64,000 nucleotides of DNA, taken from positions 352-64,351 of the forward strand of contig JAKBPE010000001.1 in the NCBI GenBank assembly GCA_021829835.1, in the 5' to 3' direction. Below, one piece after another: positions 45,326 through 54,921 of this stretch; within the stretch, counting starts at the first letter, position 1, and each line of letters begins with the position of its first letter. The position numbers were made by a program, and so were the translations under genes. Under the pieces are notes generated by a model. That model searched no databases and was not told the DNA's origin. It was given only the letters and a program-made list of their open reading frames with translations. This DNA comes from a bacterium (GTDB lineage: Archaea > Micrarchaeota > Micrarchaeia > Micrarchaeales > CABMGC01).

Positions 45326-46483
45326 ATGGAAATAATATTGGCTCTTTTAGCGCTTCTTGCTTTTGCGTTAATATTAGGCAACATAGTAGAGAGATTTAGG
45401 ATACCTGCAGTAGTAGGGAACATATTATCAGGAATTCTATTAGGACCCATGGTATTTGGATTTCTAAAGTATAATAGCAGCCTGTCTGGAATTGCAGAGA
45501 TATCATTATTCTTCATAATGCTTTTAGTTGGGATAGAAGCAACAACCGAACTTCTTACAAAACACATAAGAAGCGCAGTAGTATTGTCCGCATCAAGTTT
45601 TATTCTGCCAGTTTCAATAATGATTTTAATAGCAGCTTTTATCTTCCACCTAAGTTTCACCGAGGCAGTAGTTACTGCAACTGCAATAGGTGTGCCTTCG
45701 ATATCTATAATATCAGTTTTGGTAATGCGTTATAATCTCTTAGAGACTGGAGATGGAGCCAGAATAGTTTCAAGTGTTGTGCTGACAGACACAATCGCAT
45801 TTGTGATATTGGCAGCCATAGGAGTCAGTTCCGTGCCTATCTATATTGTAATCATTTCAGTCTTTGTATTCCTGCTTGTTTTGCTTTTTGTGGATAAGAT
45901 CATCAGGCGCCATGCTCTTTTTATTAGGAAAAAACTGATGAAGGAGTACCGCACGAGAGGAGGGGAAGAGTTGATATTTGCTGGAATAATATTAGTTGGA
46001 CTCATAGGTTCTGCAGTTCTACAGGTTGCAGGGATAACTTATGTTCTAGGAGCATTTTTTGCAGGGCTTCTTATACGGGATGTGGTTGTTGGGAAAAAGG
46101 TTTATGGCGTACTTAAAAGAACATTCAGCAGGATAACGACCAGCTTCTTCATACCTATCTTTTTTAGCATAGCAGGGCTCCAGGTCATCCTGCCTTCACA
46201 TTATTTGGGACTTATGACTTTGCTTATAGTTGTGAGCGGGTCAGTAGGTGGAATCCTGAGTTACTTTGCAGGCATGAAACTTCTTAAAAAATTGAGACCT
46301 GCCAGCGCTACTGCGTTACTAGGCAGCAGAGGAGCAGTAGGAATTATAATAGCAAATATAGCACTTCTTCAGGGAGACATAAACGCAGAACTTTATTCAA
46401 TAATAATACTTGCAACAATAATACTCTCTGTGATTCTTCCGGCATTGATTGGCGGTGAAGATAAAATTATGCGCAGGCAATAA
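45326..46483 (+). CDS. Cation:proton antiporter (CPA2 / Na+/H+ exchanger family)
   Basis: It is 385 aa with about 11-12 TM helices. The N-terminal sequence LGNIVERFRIPAVVGNILSGILLGP is typical of Kef/NapA-type exchangers. Confidence 0.75.
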   Translation: MEIILALLALLAFALILGNIVERFRIPAVVGNILSGILLGPMVFGFLKYNSSLSGIAEISLFFIMLLVGIEATTELLTKHIRSAVVLSASSFILPVSIMILIAAFIFHLSFTEAVVTATAIGVPSISIISVLVMRYNLLETGDGARIVSSVVLTDTIAFVILAAIGVSSVPIYIVIISVFVFLLVLLFVDKIIRRHALFIRKKLMKEYRTRGGEELIFAGIILVGLIGSAVLQVAGITYVLGAFFAGLLIRDVVVGKKVYGVLKRTFSRITTSFFIPIFFSIAGLQVILPSHYLGLMTLLIVVSGSVGGILSYFAGMKLLKKLRPASATALLGSRGAVGIIIANIALLQGDINAELYSIIILATIILSVILPALIGGEDKIMRRQ

Positions 46484-46564
46484 AAAACCTAATCGTTGAG
46501 AGCTAGGTTGAAACGGGAACTTTCGCAACAGTTTTATGAATACTAATTTAAGCTTTCCTGTAAA

Positions 46565-47473
46565 ATGATACGTAGGATCTACATGGCTAAATCAGATACA
46601 AAGAAGAATACAGTGCAGGCCAAACCAAAAAAAAGGCACAGGAAACTTGCCGCATTGGTAATCATACTTATTATAATAGGAATAGCAGGTGTGTTGTATG
46701 AAATGTATGGCAGCATACCCGTCAGTCTGATTTCTGTGGCGAGCTCCGGGAAGCCAATTACAGCTTCGGCTTTAGAGGGTGTGCTTCTTCAGAAGGTTGC
46801 ATCTTCCCAGACATTTAGCGCAAATTATACAGGAACAATTATAATCAATAATCAAGATCCTGGATTTTTGTTTTCTTTCGGAAAATATGCCAACAACACC
46901 TTCTTTTACGAAGCTGATTTTGAAAGGATTTTCGGAAGCGGGTTCAACAATCTTGTTGCTCCTGCAGGGTTCGGAACGATAGTGTATAATGGTACCCTGC
47001 CTTCGCTCATTCCTACCGATGTATGCATCAATGTTTCGGACGACCCTGCAGTGCTTGCTTCAGTGAACAATGGAGGAGTACCTACAACACTCAGTATTCC
47101 GGGATTCCCAACTAGAAATTACCTATGCGGTCTTCCTGGCAGCCAGTTTGGAAATAATGTTGCAAATCTTTTTTTGAATGAGACAAGCATAAGCGGCCTT
47201 CAGGTTTCATCATACAGTTTAAGATCGTTTGACAGCAATCCATGCTACTTTGTATCTGGAACAGCAATGGCAGATGTAAACAGCACAATTCTAGGATACG
47301 CTGGATCTAGAGAAGAACCGGCTTCCCTGAATTTCAGCTCATGCATAAGCGCGAAGTATGATGTGCCTTTCAATTTTACGGTTGATGCTATTGGAACTTA
47401 TGGTGGAAAGACGCAACTTGGAATAAATATAAGCAATATAAACCAATATCCGGGGCTTGGAAATTTTGCATGA
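46565..47473 (+). CDS. Membrane-anchored extracytoplasmic hypothetical protein
   Basis: It has a basic N-terminus plus a single TM helix (LAALVIILIIIGIAGVLY), and the remainder is rich in N-x-S/T. I recognised no family. Confidence 0.55.
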   Translation: MIRRIYMAKSDTKKNTVQAKPKKRHRKLAALVIILIIIGIAGVLYEMYGSIPVSLISVASSGKPITASALEGVLLQKVASSQTFSANYTGTIIINNQDPGFLFSFGKYANNTFFYEADFERIFGSGFNNLVAPAGFGTIVYNGTLPSLIPTDVCINVSDDPAVLASVNNGGVPTTLSIPGFPTRNYLCGLPGSQFGNNVANLFLNETSISGLQVSSYSLRSFDSNPCYFVSGTAMADVNSTILGYAGSREEPASLNFSSCISAKYDVPFNFTVDAIGTYGGKTQLGINISNINQYPGLGNFA

Positions 47474-47491
47474 ATTGCCGAGAAAGGGATA

Positions 47492-47682
47492 CAAACAAAA
47501 AGTAAATTTGGACTAGGTGTAAATCACACCTTAGGTCTTCCCGTTGCGAACAGGGCGCTCTGGACTTTTGTCGTTTTTCTCCAGGGATTCGAGCCACCGT
47601 AGATTTTATTTTCTAAAATGCGAACATATGTGTCTCGCACACAGATTATAGCGCATTTGAAAATATAAACAGATACGGTGCA
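47492..47682 (-). repeat. Left-most copy (A) of the island repeat: 25-nt direct repeat, diverged pseudo-tRNA-Ala (47509-47565) and conserved hairpin (47626-47646)
   Basis: The reverse complement contains ...CCCTG-TTCGCAA-CGGGA...AGGTG-TGATTTA-CACCT-AGTCCA, keeping the Ala CGC anticodon loop. CACCGTAGATTTTATTTT...ATGCGAACAT(C/A)TGTGTC..CGCACACAGATTAT is shared with copies at 49.68 and 50.69 kb. Confidence 0.7.
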
Positions 47683-47792
47683 ATTCTAGCCGTAATCGCA
47701 CCCACTGTTTTAGATTAACTTTTCCAAAAAGGTTATGCACCCAGACTTTTTGGTAAAGCTTTTCGTAAAAAGATTTCACATGTCACCCATTC

Positions 47793-49091
47793 CTATGTCA
47801 GGGCCCATTCCCAGAACGGCAGATACACTATCTTTATTCCATCTACATCCTCACTGCCATTGTAATCATAAGTAATTATGATTCCTTCCTTAAGCTTAAG
47901 CGCTTTTGCAGCTTCAACTAATGCTGAAGTTTCCCTGTCTTTTACATCAATGCTAGAAAGTTCATAACATACTTGTATTAGTTTAGTAGGTTTCCAGCCC
48001 ACAATGAAATCGATCTCCTTACCAGATCTCAGTTTTAGATAGTGAATATTGTCTGATACTTTTTTCCTTCTGAGCAACTCGATAAACACTGCATTTTCAA
48101 GTGCCCTTCCCTTGTCTATATCTGTAAACAATTTTGATAATCCAATGTCAACAATGTAACTCTTTACTTGCCTAGCAAAACGCTTTCTTGGGCTTTTTAA
48201 ATATTGTTCCAAGATTTCAGCAAAGAATACGGATTTGGAGTATTCTAAAAAGTTAAGAATTGTGACTCTGCTAATCTCAAAGCCCATACTGTTGAAATAA
48301 TTCTGGGCCTTTGTTGAGCTGAAATAAGTTGAATAGTTACTAGCAATTATCTTAAGGAAAATGTTTAATGCCCCCGTTTCCCTCAAATTATATCTCTTTA
48401 TTATGTCCCTAAAGAATATGGCATCAAAGTATGATGATAAAAGATCCATTTTTCTTGTAGTATCATTTGAAAGTATAACTTCTGGAAAAGATCCGTATTC
48501 AAGAAATTCGTCTAGTGCTTTTAGTACGGTACCTTTCTTTGAAGAAAATTTTATGCCACTAATCTCCGCGGTTATCCCTTTCGATTTTAGCATCTCACTA
48601 AAAGAGAACGGATAAACAGTATAGGAAAGATTTCTGCCTGCAAGCGCCGTTGCTATTTCGCTGCTAAGTAGCTCTGATGATGACCCAGTTATTATAATTC
48701 TATACTTCTTAGTGTCATATACCTTCCTTATCCATTTATCCCAATTCTCTACGTTTTGAATCTCGTCTAAGAACAGATATACAATTCCCCCCATGGGATT
48801 GAATATTTGCGAATGTGCGATTAGAAGATTATCCATGTCTGTTGCTTTAGTAGCTATTAGGCGCTCATTCTCAAAATTAACATAAATAATATTGTCTTTT
48901 GTTACCCTTCTTTTCATTAGCGCTTTAATGTGCTGAAACATTAAGCTTGTTTTGCCCGAACGTCTTACACCTGCAATGACAATTACTTTATCTGCATTTA
49001 AATCTAACGTAATTTTCCTTTCTATGACTTCTGGGAGTTCCATCTCTTTCCAGAGAGTAAGCACATACTTAAAGTCATCAATTCTAGCCAT
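47793..49091 (-). CDS. AAA+ ATPase of the COG1373 type (AAA_14 + DUF4143)
   Basis: Walker A is AGVRRSGKTS and Walker B is YLFLDEIQ. The product is 432 aa with a DUF4143-like C-terminal part. Confidence 0.75.
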   Translation of the reverse strand: MARIDDFKYVLTLWKEMELPEVIERKITLDLNADKVIVIAGVRRSGKTSLMFQHIKALMKRRVTKDNIIYVNFENERLIATKATDMDNLLIAHSQIFNPMGGIVYLFLDEIQNVENWDKWIRKVYDTKKYRIIITGSSSELLSSEIATALAGRNLSYTVYPFSFSEMLKSKGITAEISGIKFSSKKGTVLKALDEFLEYGSFPEVILSNDTTRKMDLLSSYFDAIFFRDIIKRYNLRETGALNIFLKIIASNYSTYFSSTKAQNYFNSMGFEISRVTILNFLEYSKSVFFAEILEQYLKSPRKRFARQVKSYIVDIGLSKLFTDIDKGRALENAVFIELLRRKKVSDNIHYLKLRSGKEIDFIVGWKPTKLIQVCYELSSIDVKDRETSALVEAAKALKLKEGIIITYDYNGSEDVDGIKIVYLPFWEWALT

Positions 49092-49265
49092 ATTGGTATA
49101 GTATGCTATACATATTTATATGCTTTACGTTTAGTATACTGTACGTAAATAAAGAGATCCGGTTCGTTAACTCTGCATCCCTACATCTTTTGTGCAATTC
49201 CATCTGATATGCATGCTGAAACTTGGAAAGGTTAAGTTTTACAGGATTTGCTAGGCAATTGGATG

Positions 49266-49290
49266 CAAACAAAAAGTAAATTTGAACTAG
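49266..49290 (-). repeat. Second copy of the 25-nt direct repeat caaacaaaaagtaaatttgRactag
   Basis: It matches 47492-47516 at 24 of 25 positions. It contains only the last few nt of a tRNA 3' end (CTAGTTCA) plus the 3' flank. Confidence 0.7.
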
Positions 49291-49345
49291 CCCTTAATAA
49301 AAGGTAGTATATCCTCGGCCTTGAATAAAAATGGGCTTGGAGGAC

Positions 49346-49570
49346 TTACTGACTTGCAATTTCTATTATCTTATCTTTACTCGCTGCACCTTTTATTATT
49401 CTTATACCTGCCCTTTTCACATTGAAATACGACGAAAGAGCACTTATTACAGCTATATTAGCACGACCTTCAATCGCCTTTTCTTTAACCTTAAGTTTAT
49501 AACTTGTAGGGTTTATCTTTTGCAATACCTCGAATTTGGAATTTGGAATCACTTTTACTTTTATTAACAT
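49346..49570 (-). CDS. DUF167 (YggU/UPF0235) family protein
   Basis: The 74-aa sequence IKVKVIPNSK...KLKVKEKAIEGRANIAVISALSSYFNVKRAGIRIIKGAASKDKIIEI matches the DUF167 pattern. Confidence 0.7.
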   Translation of the reverse strand: MLIKVKVIPNSKFEVLQKINPTSYKLKVKEKAIEGRANIAVISALSSYFNVKRAGIRIIKGAASKDKIIEIASQ

Positions 49571-49584
49571 AGTAACACTTAGAG

Positions 49585-49974
49585 ATTTGGACTCGGCAGG
49601 GATCTCGCCAGCGACCTCGCCGTTGCGAACGAGTGTGAGTCCCTAGCTTTTTCGTCTAGCTTTTGTTTCATTTTAGCACCGTAGATTTTATTTTCGTTAA
49701 ATACGGACATCTGTGTCTTCGCACACAGATTATGGCGGGTTTAAAAAATAATATCGTCGAGATCGCATTCAGACCCGCTTGCGGATTCGTCACCAGATTT
49801 TTCCTCAGCTTCTTGATAAAACTTCTTCCCAAGAAGTTTTGTGGACTCGACAAGACATCAACAATTGAGTATGATGTATAAAAACCATTATCTAAATGGT
49901 GTTTGATGGTATTTGATTGTATTTACTTACATTCACTAGCATTCTATGGTCTTGACTCCAACTTTCCTAGCAAG
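49585..49974 (-). repeat. Composite island repeat, copy C (pseudo-tRNA, hairpin 49709-49730, 23-nt palindrome 49818-49840, tail running into the vapC 3' end)
   Basis: By eye it aligns nearly base for base with 50591-50998 (a few substitutions and one indel of about 20 nt). Confidence 0.85.
49588..49643 (-). pseudogene. D-armless pseudo-tRNA-Ala (copy C)
   Basis: The reverse complement is GGGACTCACACTCG-TTCGCAA-CGGCGAGGTC-GCTGG-CGAGATC-CCTGC-CGAGTCCA. It shares the anticodon loop and the 3' acceptor end CGAGTCCA with the bona fide tRNA-Ala at 51710-51781, but it lacks the D arm and has a mispaired T stem. Confidence 0.7.
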
Positions 49975-50322
49975 TTCTGCCTGATTGCCATCGCAGGTTA
50001 CTAGCTCGTAAGAGTTCTTTAGCGCCGCAGCTACGAACATAGCATCGTATATAGATGAATTGTATTTCTTAGCAATTTCAAAGGCCTTAATGATATGCTT
50101 TTTTTCTTCTATAAATCTGAAAGTACTTGGGTACCTCTCAAGGATCTCCACCACTTTCTTATAATCAAGCTCATTCTTACGGACTTTCTTCAGAAGTGCG
50201 CTGCCTAACTCTATCATGGAAAGTTCTATGCTTATGGGCTCATAGAGATACACCTCCACATCTTCCCATCCTGGCTCTTCTGAAAAGTACTTGACAATAA
50301 CGGAACTATCAATGAGTCTCAT
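49936..50322 (-). CDS. vapC: PIN-domain ribonuclease toxin
   Basis: The N-terminus MRLIDSSVIVKYF carries the catalytic Asp. Later acidic residues occur in IYDAMFVAAAL and VTCDGNQ. It overlaps the upstream antitoxin gene by 14 nt. Confidence 0.8.
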   Translation of the reverse strand: MRLIDSSVIVKYFSEEPGWEDVEVYLYEPISIELSMIELGSALLKKVRKNELDYKKVVEILERYPSTFRFIEEKKHIIKAFEIAKKYNSSIYDAMFVAAALKNSYELVTCDGNQAELARKVGVKTIEC

Positions 50323-50527
50323 TTCTATCTTCTCTTATCGATTTTACCGCAAATCCTGCTTTTGATGGCTTTGAGGTTTTAACAATTTCTTTCAATTCGA
50401 GTAAAACTTTTTTGGCATTTGCCTTCCATGCCATATCCTCTATATAATCTTTTGGGTTTATGCCAGCTTTTTTAAGCTGCTCCATAGTACCACGCTTTAC
50501 TCTAATACTTATTACTTCGGTGTCCAT
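50309..50527 (-). CDS. vapB: RHH/CopG-like antitoxin; start trimmed to the Met at 50527
   Basis: MDTEVISIRVKRGTMEQLKK shows a beta-strand plus helix RHH pattern. The longer ORF (to 50677) would run through the pseudo-tRNA repeat, so I prefer the internal start. Confidence 0.65.
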   Translation of the reverse strand: MDTEVISIRVKRGTMEQLKKAGINPKDYIEDMAWKANAKKVLLELKEIVKTSKPSKAGFAVKSIREDRNETH

Positions 50528-50540
50528 AATTATATTATGG
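50524..50540 (-). promoter_or_regulatory. Inverted repeat CCATAAT-TAT-ATTATGG overlapping the vapB start codon (candidate operator)
   Basis: A perfect 7-bp inverted repeat was read directly and covers the ATG at 50525-50527. Confidence 0.35.
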
Positions 50541-50590
50541 CATACAGATATATAAACATTTTTGTTTACATAATTGATTACATAAATAAT

Positions 50591-50998
50591 AAGTGGACTC
50601 GGCAGGGATCTCACCAGCAACCTCGCCATTGCAAACGGGTGTGAGTCCCTAGCTTTTTCGTCTATATTTCTAGCCATTTAGTTCACCGTAGATTTTATTT
50701 TTTCAAATGCGAACATCTGTGTCTTCGCACACAGATTATGGCGGATTTAAAAATATAAACAGATACGGTGCAGATATCGTCGAGATCGCATTCAGATCCG
50801 CTTGTGGATTCGTCGCCAGATTTTTCCTCAGCTTCTTGATAAAACTTCTTCCCAAGAAGTTTTGTGGACTCGACAAGACATCAACAATTGAGTATGATGT
50901 ATAAAAACAATTATCTAAATGGTGTTTAATGGTATTTGATTGTACTTGCTTACATTCACTAGCATTCTATTGTCTTGACTCCAACTTTCCTAGCAAGC
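50591..50998 (-). repeat. Composite island repeat, copy D (pseudo-tRNA, hairpin 50715-50736, palindrome 50841-50863, tail running into the second PIN gene 3' end)
   Basis: See copy C. This copy additionally retains the TATAAACAGATACGGTGCA block found in copy A (47664-47682) but deleted from copy C. Confidence 0.85.
50594..50649 (-). pseudogene. D-armless pseudo-tRNA-Ala (copy D)
   Basis: The reverse complement is GGGACTCACACCCG-TTTGCAA-TGGCGAGGTT-GCTGG-TGAGATC-CCTGC-CGAGTCCA. It has the same architecture as copy C with a few substitutions, and the anticodon loop is now TTTGCAA. Confidence 0.7.
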
Positions 50999-51389
50999 CT
51001 ATTAGCTCCTTTGTGGAAATAATACGTATTCTTTTTTGTGTGCTAAAATCCAGATCATGGCTCCATATAAGTGTATTTTCATAGAGTGCACAAGAGATGT
51101 AAAGCCAGTCCTTAGAATCATCTACGAGGCTTGCCGCAGCAAGGAGGAAAGGTCTAAGATTCTTGTCTGGAACGAGGATAAGCTGGCCAAGAATCTTGTC
51201 AACTAATCTGTAAAATTCTTCATTGTTCAGTCCTGATTTTTTTCTTACTTCGGCAAGATGGCGTGCAAATTCATCAACAATGAATTCTGGCGCAAAAAGG
51301 GACAGCGCCGGGTTAAAGAACAGTTTTCTTGTTGTTGAATCTTTTATGAGGCATGCAAACAGCATGTTTGCATCAACGGTTATTTTCAT
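50967..51389 (-). CDS. PIN-domain toxin (second family, unrelated in sequence to 49936-50322)
   Basis: MKITVDANMLFACL carries the N-terminal Asp, and acidic residues occur at DDSKDW and SHDLDF. It overlaps the upstream antitoxin gene by 17 nt. Confidence 0.75.
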   Translation of the reverse strand: MKITVDANMLFACLIKDSTTRKLFFNPALSLFAPEFIVDEFARHLAEVRKKSGLNNEEFYRLVDKILGQLILVPDKNLRPFLLAAASLVDDSKDWLYISCALYENTLIWSHDLDFSTQKRIRIISTKELIGLLGKLESRQ

Positions 51390-51624
51390 TTAGGAGCGCC
51401 TCTGCATGTTTTGCAGCATTCTTTGCAATTTTTGCACTTATAGGCTTCCAAGTTTTCCAATTAAGTCTGCTCTTCTTAGCTATGCTTTCGGCTTCCTCAA
51501 AATCTGCAATTTTCTGTTCTATTACATTTCTTACTGCACTTGACCATTTGACATAGGAGTACTTCTCCATCTCCTTTTTCAACTCATCGCTTATCGAAAG
51601 GGTAATATTTGGCACATGAATCAC
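51373..51624 (-). CDS. RHH/CopG-like antitoxin (GTG start)
   Basis: ITLSISDELKKEMEKY..VKWSSAVRNVIEQKI shows an RHH pattern. The gene is coupled to the PIN gene. Confidence 0.65.
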   Translation of the reverse strand: MIHVPNITLSISDELKKEMEKYSYVKWSSAVRNVIEQKIADFEEAESIAKKSRLNWKTWKPISAKIAKNAAKHAEALLNENNR

Positions 51625-51639
51625 ATAATTATTATGTGA
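51621..51639 (-). promoter_or_regulatory. Inverted repeat TCACATAAT-T-ATTATGTGA overlapping the antitoxin start (candidate operator)
   Basis: A perfect 9-bp inverted repeat was read directly and spans the GTG start at 51622-51624. Confidence 0.35.
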
Positions 51640-51709
51640 ATGAACATATTTAATACTTACTATTCAAGCATGAAGGCGATTCACATACAACTCTGTCGTA
51701 AACGTGATT

Positions 51710-51781
51710 TGGACTCGGCGGGATTCGCACCCGCGGCCTTTTCGTTGCGAACGAAACGCGCTGCTACTGCGCCACGAGCCC
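51710..51781 (-). tRNA. tRNA-Ala(CGC), intact, 72 nt, no encoded CCA
   Basis: The reverse complement is GGGCTCG-TG-GCGC-AGTAGCA-GCGC-G-TTTCG-TTCGCAA-CGAAA-AGGCC-GCGGG-TGCGAAT-CCCGC-CGAGTCC-A. All stems pair, and the G3:U70 alanine identity pair is present. AT-rich TATA-like sequence lies upstream (51791-51825). Confidence 0.9.
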
Positions 51782-52052
51782 TTTTTTATTTTTTATAAAT
51801 CAAATATTAAAATAATTATAAAACTATAAATTCATAAGTGCAACTATGCAATGCAACTATACAATTCATAGAATAATAATGCGTAGGTTGTCTTCTGGCT
51901 TTGCAAGTTACATGCCACAAACACACCGTTAAGGGCCATATATTAGAAAGACTTAAATAGGTAGAAGATTACTGTTATATAGAAAAGCAGATGCAGTAGT
52001 CCAATTAAGCTACTAATTATTTTGATAGCGGTTTCTTTGTATACTACTAATT

Positions 52053-53471
52053 TTGCTTTCAGATGTGAATAAAATGAAAGCATTTTCGGAAATGGGGCTA
52101 GAACCCCGACTAGTGGAAACGTTAAAGAGGCACAATTTTGTCAACCCTACAGAGGTACAGGAGAATACAATACCTGTTGCCCTGGAAGGCAAAGACGTGA
52201 TTGTAAGAGCGAAGACAGGAACAGGTAAGACTCTCGCATTCCTGATACCTATAAAACAGAGAAGCAAGCCTGGGCCATACCCAGAGGCAATTGTTCTTGC
52301 ACCTACAAGAGAACTTGCGCTGCAGATAGCGGACGTTGCAAAAAAACTCAATTCAAGTCCAAATCATGGAATTGCTGTAGTCTATGGAGGAGCCTCCATA
52401 AACGTGCAGATACAGGATCTCAGGAGAAATCCAGACATAATAATAGGCACGCCTGGAAGAGTAATAGACCTTATAGAGAGAGGAGCGCTTAATCTGGAGA
52501 GGATAAAGTTTCTTGTGCTTGACGAAGCTGACACCATGCTTGATATGGGATTCATACTGGATGTTGAATTTATACTGTCAAAAACACCTAGGGAGAAGCA
52601 GACTATGATCTTTTCGGCAACTATGCCAGAAAAGATAAGGACAATAGCTAAAAGGCATATGAACGACCCTGCATTCATAAGGATAGGTGAAGAGGACGAT
52701 ATAGTCGTTTCCAAGATAAAGCACCTTTACGCAGAGGTAGACAACAGAATGAAGTTTGCAACATTGCTTGCTTACATAGAAGGATACAAGCCAAAGAAGG
52801 CGATTATATTTGCCCAGACTAAGTATGCTGCCAATGCAATATACGAAGCCATGAAAGGCCAGGGACTCGATGTAGTCATGATGCATGGAGGTCTTACTCA
52901 GGCAAAAAGGGAGCATTCGCTTAGGGAGTTTAAGAACAATGGGAGGTTCCTAATAGCGACTAATGTTGCAGCTAGGGGAATAGACATAGCAGGAATCTCA
53001 GATATAATAAATTTTGATGTGACAGAAGACCCTAGGACATATGTGCACAGAGTGGGCAGGTCAGCAAGGATGAATAATGACGGAAGGTCATTCACTATAG
53101 TCAATGGATCCCAGAGGAATATAATTTCAGACATAGAAGATTCAGTCAATGTCAAGTTTGAGAAGATCTCACCTGACGGAAGCGCCTACAAGGACATAGT
53201 AATCTTCAGGAGAGGAGGCGGAGGAAGCTTCGGAGGAGGAAGAGGGGAATTCAGAGAAAGGCGCGGCAGTCCGAGAAGGCAGTGGGGCAATAACAACTTC
53301 GAGAGGGGAGGAAGGCCCGGGCAGAATTCTGGAGAGAGGTTTAGGCGCAGCGAAGGCTTCCATGGAAGCGGAGAGAGAAGCGGAAGAAGTTTCAACAGGG
53401 AAGGAGGAAACAACAGATTCCACTCCAGAGGAGGCTTCAGGTCCCAGAAACGCTCCAACACAAGGCATTAA
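52053..53471 (+). CDS. DEAD-box ATP-dependent RNA helicase with an Arg/Gly-rich C-terminal tail
   Basis: Motifs AKTGTGKT, PTRELA, DEAD, SAT and HRVGRSAR are present. The last 90 aa or so are RGG/RG-rich low complexity. A start at the MKAFSEMG Met is possible. Confidence 0.9.
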   Translation: MLSDVNKMKAFSEMGLEPRLVETLKRHNFVNPTEVQENTIPVALEGKDVIVRAKTGTGKTLAFLIPIKQRSKPGPYPEAIVLAPTRELALQIADVAKKLNSSPNHGIAVVYGGASINVQIQDLRRNPDIIIGTPGRVIDLIERGALNLERIKFLVLDEADTMLDMGFILDVEFILSKTPREKQTMIFSATMPEKIRTIAKRHMNDPAFIRIGEEDDIVVSKIKHLYAEVDNRMKFATLLAYIEGYKPKKAIIFAQTKYAANAIYEAMKGQGLDVVMMHGGLTQAKREHSLREFKNNGRFLIATNVAARGIDIAGISDIINFDVTEDPRTYVHRVGRSARMNNDGRSFTIVNGSQRNIISDIEDSVNVKFEKISPDGSAYKDIVIFRRGGGGSFGGGRGEFRERRGSPRRQWGNNNFERGGRPGQNSGERFRRSEGFHGSGERSGRSFNREGGNNRFHSRGGFRSQKRSNTRH

Positions 53472-53517
53472 CCAGAATATCTGATTGGCTTTTTAGCTGT
53501 TTCCGTTTAATATATTT

Positions 53518-54921
53518 TTGATGGACGGAAAAAAAGCAAAAGAAGCAGATAGGATATTCCAACATGTGTTAAAGAATATAAAGCCCAGCAGAGCCGAGGC
53601 CCGCGATATCATATACAATGTAAACAATGTAGTACTGAAGCTCAAGGAGATAGTGCCTGGCAATGTAGAAATAAGGGTAGTGGGCTCGATAGCCAGAAGC
53701 ACTAATCTGAAAGGAGACAGTGATGTTGACGTCTTCATGCTTTTTGACAGAAGCGTAAGCAAAGAAAGTCTCTCGAAGAAAGGGCTTGAATACGGCAGGA
53801 GGCTCGTTGATCCTAAAAAAGGAGAGAGATACGAGATAAAATACGCGGAGCACCCTTATGTGCGCGTATACCTCGAATCGGGAATCAAAGCAGACATAGT
53901 TCCTGCAAGCAAGATTGAGAGTGCAGAGTCAATGGCAACTTCTGTTGACAGGACTCCAATGCATACTGAATTTGTGAATTCATCAATTACAAACAAACAG
54001 AGAGACGATGTAAGACTGCTTAAGTATCTCTTGAAAGCACATGGAATATATGGAGCAGAAGCAAAGACCGGCGGATTCTCAGGGTATCTATGCGAACTCC
54101 TGATAATACAGTTTGGCTCGCTCCTGAAGTTTCTGGAGTGGGCATGCAGGATAAAACCCCCTGTTACACTATATCCTATAATGAAGAAGGCAGTTGCTGA
54201 GGATGAAGAAGCATTCCGAAAATTCGGGAAGAGACTTGTAGTAATAGATCCAGTAGACATAAACAGGAATGTTGCAGCTGCTGTCTCTGAGGAATCTTTT
54301 GCCAAGCTTGTTCTTGTGGCTAGAGCATTTATATCAAATCCTACGCTTAAGTCATTTTACGGAAGTGGCTTCACTTCTTCGAAAAGCGAAGAACTCATTT
54401 ATGGGTTTATGAAAAAATCAGGTTTGCAATTCATAACACTTGAATTCAGAATATCAGATAAGAGCCCTGAGATAATATGGCCGCAGGTAAATAAGACAGC
54501 AAAGAAGATAGAGGATCTTCTGTGTAATAATGGATTTGAGACAGCCTTTAGCGTATCATGGATAGATGGCAATGAAGCACTAATAATGATGGCATTGCCT
54601 ATGCAATCTGTAAAATCAAGAATGATTAAAGGACCAGACATCTTCAAGACAGAGAACACATCACAATTCATAGAGAAGCATGGCAAGGGAATGGGCTTCC
54701 TGATTAAGGAGAGCACCCTTTATGCTCTTGAGAAGAACAGATATCCTGATGCTGAGAGCATATTCGGAGATATTGTGAAAGGAAAGCTGATAGATAAGCA
54801 TAAAGACATAAACCTCAAGAATGCGAAGGTCCTTATCAACAGAATATCCAAGAAGCATGCATATTCTGCATATGTAGAATTGAGTGCAAAACTAAACATT
54901 CGTGGATTTGGTGGAGAATAA
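53518..54921 (+). CDS. cca: CCA-adding enzyme (archaeal class I tRNA nucleotidyltransferase)
   Basis: The nucleotidyltransferase motif is GSIARSTNLKGDSDVDVFMLF, followed by YAEHPYV and TPMHTEF. The 467-aa length is typical of the archaeal enzyme. Confidence 0.88.
   Translation: MMDGKKAKEADRIFQHVLKNIKPSRAEARDIIYNVNNVVLKLKEIVPGNVEIRVVGSIARSTNLKGDSDVDVFMLFDRSVSKESLSKKGLEYGRRLVDPKKGERYEIKYAEHPYVRVYLESGIKADIVPASKIESAESMATSVDRTPMHTEFVNSSITNKQRDDVRLLKYLLKAHGIYGAEAKTGGFSGYLCELLIIQFGSLLKFLEWACRIKPPVTLYPIMKKAVAEDEEAFRKFGKRLVVIDPVDINRNVAAAVSEESFAKLVLVARAFISNPTLKSFYGSGFTSSKSEELIYGFMKKSGLQFITLEFRISDKSPEIIWPQVNKTAKKIEDLLCNNGFETAFSVSWIDGNEALIMMALPMQSVKSRMIKGPDIFKTENTSQFIEKHGKGMGFLIKESTLYALEKNRYPDAESIFGDIVKGKLIDKHKDINLKNAKVLINRISKKHAYSAYVELSAKLNIRGFGGE

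Follow-up and report, generated by a model that had tools for sequence, protein, structure and literature searches.

A probable stack of degenerate integrative elements at the 3' end of a Micrarchaeota tRNA-Ala gene

The subject of this work is a 4.3-kb island that lies next to a tRNA-Ala(CGC) gene in a 64,000-nucleotide (nt) stretch of Micrarchaeota DNA, contig JAKBPE010000001.1, referred to here as the window. All coordinates are those of the window, and all features of the island are on the minus strand. The intact tRNA-Ala(CGC) gene is at 51710-51781 (ARAGORN; Rfam tRNA, 65.6 bits), and is the only tRNA reported by ARAGORN for the window. An earlier reading made from the letters alone (the sequence-only reading) had placed it there, and had described three tRNA-Ala-derived segments and a fourth remnant lying 3' of it, which separate short units with different cargo and no integrase. 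The G+C content between 47400 and 51800 is 0.35-0.40; in the flanks it reaches 0.42 (below 47400) and 0.46 (above 52000).

The three segments are confirmed. They resemble the 3' two-thirds of tRNA-Ala and are on the same strand as the gene. Each was scored by alignment to the last 45 nt of tRNA-Ala, with 2000 shuffles to provide a z-score. There are 34 matched positions at 50594-50640 (z=10.9), 37 at 49588-49634 (z=12.7) and 32 at 47509-47555 (z=10.0), match scores that were attained by none of the 2000 shuffles. They are called pseudo-tRNAs 1, 2 and 3 below. The fourth remnant, at 49266-49290, is not significantly tRNA-like alone (z=1.4), but forms a genuine direct repeat with 47487-47516 (30 nt, 93%; repeat D10). 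The core octamer CGAGTCCA occurs five times in the 64 kb, always on the minus strand and always within 49588-51717; two of the copies, at 50865-50872 and 49842-49849, had been overlooked by the sequence-only reading. There is also a longer repeat of about 400 nt, in which 49588-49974 is 88.7% identical to 50594-50997, with an inner stretch of 224 nt at 96%, and part of which recurs at 47566-47792.

Moving outward from the tRNA, the first unit is cassette C1 (51625-50873). It starts with a leader (51625-51709), identified by alignment A5 as the left (P') arm of an integrative element of a family described below as family Z, which here lies ahead of a toxin-antitoxin (TA) pair instead of an integrase. 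The pair consists of an RHH_12 antitoxin gene (51373-51624; PF26688, from the precomputed Pfam list) and a PIN_2 toxin gene that overlaps it (50967-51389; PF10130, 4.8e-21). The cassette ends with X-arm A (50873-50966), the right (P) arm of a family-Z element by alignment A6, and meets the following integrase relic at the octamer at 50865-50872. Cassette C2 lies between pseudo-tRNA 1 and the octamer at 49842-49849, which is its own junction with a second integrase relic; both octamers come from the list of exact matches. C2 contains a PIN toxin gene (49936-50322; PF01850, 4.7e-14) and, overlapping it upstream, a small gene from the open reading frame (ORF) list (50309-50530), which has no significant Pfam family and is a putative antitoxin by position only. 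It retains its right arm, X-arm B (49850-49935; A6 and boundary comparison).

Beyond C2, a DUF167 (YggU-like) gene (49346-49570; Pfam, 2.7e-15) comes directly after pseudo-tRNA 2, and this junction is 93% identical in a metagenome contig, L102 (loci used for comparison are given as L numbers). It is followed at 49215-49290 by a degenerate core (CTAGTTCA) and the last ~75 nt of an opposite-strand gene, which is deleted in the window and intact in L079 and L073. On the basis of repeat D10, this is the left border of a further unit. The remnant sequence at 49266-49290 directly follows genuine tRNA-Ala genes in L079 and L019. The unit carries an AAA_14/DUF4143 ATPase (47793-49091; Pfam, 8.6e-38 and 1.3e-15), a candidate anti-phage defence gene (PADLOC PDC-S01, 1.8e-103). 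The right border of the island, at 47487-47565, is formed by pseudo-tRNA 3 (47509-47565) and the terminal 30-nt repeat (repeats D7 and D10). The units are very small, at 0.27-2.1 kb. The cargo named by the sequence-only reading holds up in profile searches, with Pfam matches for RHH_12, PIN_2, PIN, DUF167 and AAA_14/DUF4143, except for the second antitoxin. Just outside the border, a weak CRISPR-DR6 match at 47367-47397 (Rfam, E=0.59; 22 bits, where the gathering score is 39) falls within a 302-aa ORF, and is taken as chance because no array is present.

No recombinase catalytic domain was found in the window when its six-frame ORFs were searched with a profile of the integrase IntS and by phmmer with the integrase IntZ (nothing below E=0.28), and the Pfam lists over +/-10 kb around the island contain no recombinase. 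To this extent the sequence-only reading was correct that there is no integrase. It missed, however, that short fragments of integrase genes are present despite the absence of the catalytic domain: the pseudo-tRNAs lie within 5' integrase fragments, and about 30 further integrase codons adjoin them. A conserved module of ~250 nt around the pseudo-tRNAs consists of a promoter, an ATG and ~27 codons of an integrase that we call family S (IntS).

In the copy next to C1, S1 A (50785-50871), directly after the att site, is a relic of family-S integrase codons ~24-52 (tblastn with the L041 integrase, 66% identity), with the translation ESTKLLGKKFYQEAEEKSGDESTSGSECD. S2 A (50678-50784) is the region upstream of the family-S integrase gene, as seen from the BLAST map and from alignment A3 with seven other copies, and carries a TATA-like TTTATATTT and a conserved hairpin TCTGTGTGCGAAGACACAGA. 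It leads into int(N) A (50594-50677), an ATG followed by 27 codons that contain pseudo-tRNA 1 (50594-50649, TGC anticodon type), as defined by frame analysis of 13 copies and by the similarity to tRNA. In the second copy, S1 B (49762-49848) is 69% identical to residues 24-52 of the L041 integrase (tblastn), S2 B (49672-49761) has in A3 a 17-nt deletion that takes part of the TATA region, and int(N) B (49588-49671) contains pseudo-tRNA 2 (49588-49643, CGC type; same two lines of evidence). The third upstream region, S2 C (47566-47792; A3 and BLAST), is more decayed and is 90% identical to L073 9615-9771 and L013 8285-8428, while pseudo-tRNA 3 beside it has lost the ATG and has had its T-arm replaced. 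In copies A and B, S1 is fused directly to S2, and A3 places the junction within a repeated TCTGGGTGCG-like motif. The junction is alike in window copies A and B and in L071, and L073 uses the other copy of TCTGGGTGCG. We considered whether the common junction is proof of a propagating mini-element, and rejected this, recurrent deletion at TCTGGGTGCG being an equally good explanation.

The hairpin TCTGTGTGCGAAGACACAGA lies between the TATA-like box and the family-S ATG at 50713-50737, 49707-49731 and 47628-47650. It is also conserved in the S2 copies of L013, L069, L071, L073, L088 and L101-L104, and some copies carry G-U-compatible changes. It may be an operator or a structure in the 5' untranslated region. 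A metagenome scan for S2 alone gave four loci, L102 among them.

These fragments can be compared with relatives in which the integrase is found. A family-S integrase (PF00589, 1.1e-11) lies directly 3' of tRNA-Ala in L041, L052, L011, L058 and L016. The frame in L041 is open through the tRNA (336-aa ORF), and L052 matches continuously from residue 1. The database search yielded 534 family-S homologues, and many of the predicted proteins start within tRNA-encoded sequence (AGANPAES, AGSNPAES, PLCKRKVAG). In an alignment of 17 of the homologues (A4), the catalytic residues R148, K173, H266, R269 (HxxR), H293 and Y302 are invariant throughout (17/17), and the conserved N-terminal residues (ASGSGC, LPYLPKH) begin ~20 codons past the att core. 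As read from the sequence, L041 has no start codon between the att core and this conserved N-terminal region, so that the start of the family-S gene has to lie upstream of its attachment site. The S2 copies fit this: 9 of the 12 that have an ATG are in frame with the integrase, with lengths of 81 or 84 nt, which is a coding signature. A complete integrated family-S element of 3.3 kb is found in L088, in the order tRNA, S1 with the integrase body, five small ORFs, S2 with the first codons, a 30-nt copy of the tRNA 3' end, and host genes. From these integrated copies, the family-S attachment site appears to lie within its own gene, in the "suicidal" layout known from SSV-type integrases (PMC8371274).

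Family S matched only PF00589; PF16795 was unmatched even at E<=10. In sequence and profile searches of the PDB, the closest solved relative of IntS is XerA (4a8e), IntI4 is a weak match, and the SSV1 integrase chain gave no match. Some family-S relatives read through tRNA-Ala(UGC), tRNA-Ala(GGC) and other tRNAs (L089:27-116; L090:7881-7954; P0111, P0076, P0124), and in some the tRNA is crossed in a different frame (PSP instead of AES). The more remote relatives begin with helix-turn-helix N-termini and look unsplit. In L089, a larger element lies behind tRNA-Ala(UGC) (L089:58-11005), with a family-S-type integrase, a DUF87/FtsK-like ATPase and an N6/N4 methyltransferase; this element is plasmid- or virus-like.

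The second family, Z, has a different organisation. IntZ is a protein of ~395 aa with its own start codon, a PF00589 domain and a C-terminal zinc-ribbon tail, and has 1159 homologues. The common core of family Z is the 12 nt CCGCCGAGTCCA, the 3' end of tRNA-Ala(CGC), which is the integration target (attB, or the current attL). In L115 and L117, tRNA-Ala is followed by a leader (TTTTCGCTTTACGAGGAAG...GGGTATGA), by IntZ and six genes (6.84 kb), by an X-arm that ends in ACTCAATTACTGACGTCCGC, and then by CGAGTCCA. In L116 the X-arm, core and leader are contiguous, which represents either an attP or a tandem junction. The leader of the window aligns in A5 with the stretch from the att core to the IntZ start in L050, L113, L115 and L116, the window copy being diverged, and in A6 X-arm A matches the right-hand ends of the complete L050 and L115-L117 Z elements, as well as the attP-type junction of L116. 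The ends of the cassettes are thus homologous to the arms of integrase-bearing elements of 6.8-8.7 kb. Since C1 and C2 keep Z arms and a TA pair and have no integrase, both would be Z elements that have lost the integrase.

The two families meet at the same sites. The arrangement of X-arm, CGAGTCCA and S1 seen at 50865-50872 is also found in L073, L050 and L117; in L050 and L117, S1 and the body of the family-S integrase come after a Z element, and in L113 a Z element is inserted in a family-S pseudo-tRNA. The presence of TATA-like boxes upstream of the cassette genes, seen by eye and with no promoter scan, suggests that these genes have their own promoters. The window leader was also considered as a decayed tRNA half, and this was rejected (z=-0.1); the L017 and L104 versions look more tRNA-like by eye.

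The comparison with relatives covered ~100 Micrarchaeota loci, including 80 fetched around the gene for the CCA-adding enzyme. This gene and tRNA-Ala(CGC) are divergent neighbours in ~60 of the 80; in the window (51710-54921), a DEAD-box helicase gene (52074-53471) stands between them. Direct repeats of the tRNA-Ala 3' end are found a few kb downstream in L088 (30 nt), L071 (44 nt), L073 (28 nt) and L069 (22 nt), and the contigs of many relatives end at or within tRNA-Ala. These two observations mark tRNA-Ala as a general integration hot spot in the phylum.

The units of the island recur in distant genomes. C1 has 67-90% nucleotide identity in L073 (90%), L035, L054 and L042, C2 is 87-88% identical in L017 and L022, and the ATPase unit is 86-88% identical in L013, L073 and L079, where in L079 it lies directly after the genuine tRNA. 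The genomes that share units have CCA-adding enzymes of only 35-49% protein identity, against 67-93% for the units in DNA. The integrase-less units have the same ends in these genomes and stand in different orders. To judge from these identities, the units, or arrays carrying them, have clearly moved horizontally.

Within the species the picture is one of constancy. The island is identical in at least 17-24 independent assemblies from several samples, and is therefore not an assembly artefact. When the species was searched with the ATPase, the 302-aa flank protein and the DEAD-box helicase, the only candidate for another allele was L095, whose flank is 99.98% identical to the window and in which a tRNA with an intron is followed by an IntZ gene. 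L095 is not counted as proof of variation, because it comes from the same sample as L003, which is clearly chimeric. The variation in number and order of cassettes for which the sequence-only reading advised looking was thus not seen in the species look-ups, at least 24 assemblies being invariant. In L003:1-7382, the tRNA 5' end is the exact point at which the island is joined to a left flank from another species (99.9% identity to L030), most likely an assembly chimera through the common tRNA.

Several further observations concern the tRNA gene and contig ends. An intron of ~30-40 nt after position 37 of tRNA-Ala(CGC), missed by ARAGORN, is present in L013, L019, L025, L050, L053, L054, L064, L088 and L095 (for example L088:40-141 and L095:1146-1250); the window tRNA has none, and the L095 intron resembles those in other IntZ-occupied loci. 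Two contigs end with a 78-nt inverted copy of the pseudo-tRNA 3 region (L006:11675-11752 and L093:1-78; window 47543-47620), which looks like an assembly artefact at the repeat. Of the contigs L096-L100 (window 51575-51767), which come from different samples, four end inside tRNA-Ala and L100 ends ~135 nt past it, in the RHH_12 gene. Assemblies repeatedly break at tRNA-Ala, either because strains are heterogeneous or because the tRNA is common to co-occurring species.

On the basis of these observations, we propose that the island arose by accretion, with five or six degenerate integrative elements lined up in tandem at the tRNA-Ala(CGC) 3' end, a hot spot of two integrase families, and we put the probability of this at about 0.8. 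The family-S gene would consist of a promoter, an ATG, ~27 codons that include a tRNA-Ala-like stretch, and then the rest of the integrase, so that the att site falls inside the frame. Integration would split the gene, so that the integrase body is joined to the tRNA and the first codons, with the promoter, are left at the element's far end, ahead of the displaced 3' part of the tRNA. The three pseudo-tRNAs of the window would be such far ends. At two places ~30 codons of the integrase body (S1) would have become fused to the next promoter module (S2), the simplest reading being that the family-S interior, with its catalytic domain, was deleted between short TCTGGGTGCG-like repeats. Family Z, in contrast, would be a classical integrase whose gene stays whole, and for which the recombination site is the final 12 nt of the tRNA or a pseudo-tRNA. 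The TA cassettes would be Z elements without the integrase and other genes, C1 with both arms and C2 with the right arm only, and the ATPase unit would be an S element without its integrase side. S and Z insertions would have alternated at the live tRNA, each displacing the older ones outward, and the resulting units would no longer be able to move on their own. The TA and candidate defence cargo probably explains why these pieces have persisted. The proposal is in agreement with the sequence-only reading in two respects: serial site-specific integration at the tRNA-Ala 3' end is borne out by units that carry the ends of elements found intact, with their integrases, at the same tRNA in relatives (L088, L115-L117, L050), and decay of the elements to their selfish cargo is the option that fits best, given these ends and the invariance of the island in the species.

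Some results weigh against this proposal or against parts of it. An unsplit family-S integrase was sought in IMG/VR, by a pattern scan and by protein scans that started from a single sequence or from an alignment, and was not found; S2-core-S1 was likewise absent (0 matches) in a metagenome pattern scan; and none of the family-S homologues inspected begins with the int(N) peptide. Because no uninterrupted gene was found, the split-gene architecture is derived solely from copies in the integrated state. Of the 12 S2 copies with an ATG, three are out of frame, and both window copies are among them: int(N) A and int(N) B are each 83 nt long, compared with 81 or 84 nt for the in-frame copies elsewhere. 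The identical 83-nt length and identical S1-S2 junction imply that copies A and B are duplicates, or two insertions of one already-deleted unit; they are not two independent decay events. C2 has no leader arm in the window, whereas its counterpart in L017 has one. The order of the insertions is also one that we infer, as the likely one.

The shared features of copies A and B lead to an obvious alternative, also raised by the sequence-only reading, that the island is a local tandem duplication of a ~1-kb unit whose cargo genes are diverged paralogues. The ~400-nt blocks, with their high identity over 224 nt, are what this would predict, as are the common frameshift length and junction. The cargo speaks differently. 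The PIN_2 protein of C1 (PF10130) and the PIN protein of C2 (PF01850) are unrelated (BLASTP E=12) and the two upstream proteins give no alignment, so that the island is not a duplicated gene pair; moreover the two cassettes have separate close relatives in other genomes, and the third unit (DUF167/ATPase) is unrelated. These protein and cross-genome comparisons refute duplication as the sole explanation, and we regard it as very unlikely, although a duplication of the ~400-nt junction block, or its gene conversion, may have played a part without being able to explain the island. A second alternative is that the pseudo-tRNAs are functional RNAs, such as split-tRNA halves, tRNA-like molecules without a D-arm, or processing signals. 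Split tRNAs are known from DPANN archaea, and in copies 1 and 2 a GGACTC 5' of the anticodon-like region pairs with the GAGTCC 3' end. However, the GGACTC stretch is missing in other S2 copies, the T-stems contain a mismatch, and the segments sit in a reading frame that varies in length in 3-nt steps. An Rfam scan of 46000-53000 at E<=1 returned the tRNA and the CRISPR-DR6 match only, so that the pseudo-tRNAs are missed there as well as by ARAGORN, and their predicted folds are not cloverleaves and are about as stable as shuffled sequence (z between -0.75 and -1.5). The pseudo-tRNAs are attachment-site relics and not tRNA-like RNAs; the chance that they function as RNAs is close to nil. In the same range the repeated module also matches no Rfam RNA family at E<=1. 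The ~400-nt module had been considered as signal recognition particle RNA, RNase P RNA, a split or permuted tRNA and a giant tRNA intron, and these were dropped because the module is integrase-coding and promoter sequence with unremarkable folds.

A more complex question is whether the units still move. The sequence-only reading had suggested an integron-like organisation. A proper system of this kind would have its own integrase, primary att site and promoter, and promoterless cassettes with folded attC-like ends. The island does resemble chromosomal super-integrons in its small cassettes of one or two genes in a single orientation, its TA pairs and its repeated recombination sites as boundaries. 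On the other hand there is no resident integrase, attI or Pc promoter, and no tyrosine-recombinase domain in or beside the array; the junctions are the arms of ordinary integrative elements that are complete with integrases elsewhere, and not attC hairpins; TATA-like boxes precede the cassette genes (again by eye); and IntS is closer to XerA than to IntI4. The island is not an integron, and that the reading could still be rescued in some form seems highly improbable. A looser version deserves more weight, namely that integrase-less units are still excised, re-inserted and shuffled at CGAGTCCA by IntZ or IntS acting in trans, the enzymes coming from a co-resident or incoming element and the tRNA-Ala locus serving as a platform that collects cassettes. 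The sequence-only reading had likewise proposed a recombinase encoded elsewhere, and this mobilisation in trans is plausible from the sequences, with indirect support from the recurrence of these units, with unchanged ends and in differing order, in distant genomes. Identical units and ends are found in at least 3-5 distant genomes, at other positions and with other neighbours: C1 stands behind the true tRNA in the window, but in L073 it is preceded by a pseudo-tRNA, in L054 by an S1 remnant and in L042 by a bare core; C2 recurs in L017 and L022; and the ATPase unit stands directly behind the tRNA in L079. C1 has kept both Z arms and C2 its X-arm, L113 shows that pseudo-tRNAs do serve as targets, integrases of both families are plentiful (534 and 1159 homologues), and L095 pairs a nearly identical flank with an IntZ gene beside the tRNA. 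Against live exchange, the island is the same base for base in at least 24 assemblies from several samples, and the 64-kb window has no integrase. The cores in the window are eroded (8/12 nt at the X-arms, T-arm mismatches in pseudo-tRNAs 1 and 2, C2 without a leader), L095 may be chimeric like L003 from the same sample, and shared units could have spread inside larger elements or by homologous recombination between arrays. We therefore treat live exchange as a serious possibility, but favour accretion followed by decay. The most far-reaching form of the idea is that the Micrarchaeota tRNA-Ala 3' end is a docking site where two integrase families reshuffle integrase-less mini-cassettes (TA pairs and a PDC-S01-like ATPase) in trans, an integron analogue built from element arms, and that in addition the self-splitting layout of IntS is independent of SSV and lies outside the hyperthermophiles. 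This combination is offered tentatively, and we think it unlikely to hold in full.

Decayed elements stacked at tRNA genes are nothing unusual in bacteria and some archaea. The novelty here lies in the setting, in Micrarchaeota, and in the enzymes. A 2026 survey reported no proviruses in 1356 Micrarchaeota genomes (PMC13573593), and reviews of archaeal integrases do not mention DPANN (PMC8371274). The 534 and 1159 homologues, together with the many occupied tRNA-Ala loci, show what appears from these sequences to be an active integrative mobilome of Micrarchaeota centred on one tRNA. In practical terms, the S2 module, the X-arm and the leader are markers for mobile DNA and for defence and TA cargo in DPANN genomes, and tRNA-Ala is a predictable break point and source of chimeras in DPANN assemblies.

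Among known systems, family Z is closest to the type II, pNOB8-like elements, in which the integrase gene likewise remains intact beside attL and a tRNA 3' end is the target, and tandem stacking is possible, as in L116, L117 and L050. Family Z differs in its short 12-nt core and its C-terminal zinc-ribbon region, and the window differs in that only the arms remain.

Family S is more naturally compared with SSV1, pTN3 and pT26-2, which have type I "suicidal" integrases and are associated with "gene capture" (PMC8371274, PMC7253208). There are several likenesses. The attachment site is inside the integrase frame (indirectly here, from integrated copies); the 3' part of a tRNA is targeted, with direct repeats at both ends of the element; on integration the gene is divided, a short int(N) going to one end and an int(C) coming to lie beside the tRNA; the element, once trapped, decays, with capture of its cargo; and the catalytic residues of a tyrosine recombinase are present in the IntS of relatives, though none are in the window, which holds fragments only and no catalytic int(C) part. 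The differences are that IntS matches PF00589 and not PF16795, and so is not in the SSV/pTN3/pT26-2 clade, and that the family-S int(N) is only ~27 codons long. The host is also different: in the literature searched, suicidal integrases have been reported only from Sulfolobales, Thermococcales, Archaeoglobales and Methanosarcinales (PMC7253208, PMC8371274), whereas the host here is a member of the Micrarchaeota (DPANN). The PF16795 integrases are said to have a single origin (PMC8371274). Family S apparently splits its own gene without membership of the SSV clade, which is held to have arisen once and to be tied to hyperthermophiles; if this is confirmed, the self-splitting layout arose more than once. 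A further difference is the tandem arrays. According to Badel et al., tandem insertions of elements with suicidal integrases have never been seen (PMC7253208), a statement that the tandem relics described here contradict.

Tandem accretion at tRNA genes is, in contrast, characteristic of the bacterial cis-mobilisable elements (CIMEs) and their relatives, such as ICESt1/ICESt3 and the streptococcal integrative and mobilisable elements (PMC5704250). As in CIMEs, genes for integration and transfer have been lost while attL and attR are kept, the elements are stacked at the 3' end of a tRNA gene and carry TA cargo, and a new element enters a resident element's att site (L113, L117, L050, L116). 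The island differs in its archaeal host, in the very small size of its units, and in having two unrelated integrase families that alternate at one site. Taking these comparisons together, the island would appear to behave like a combination of the archaeal split-integrase "gene capture" with the tandem accretion of the bacterial CIME type.

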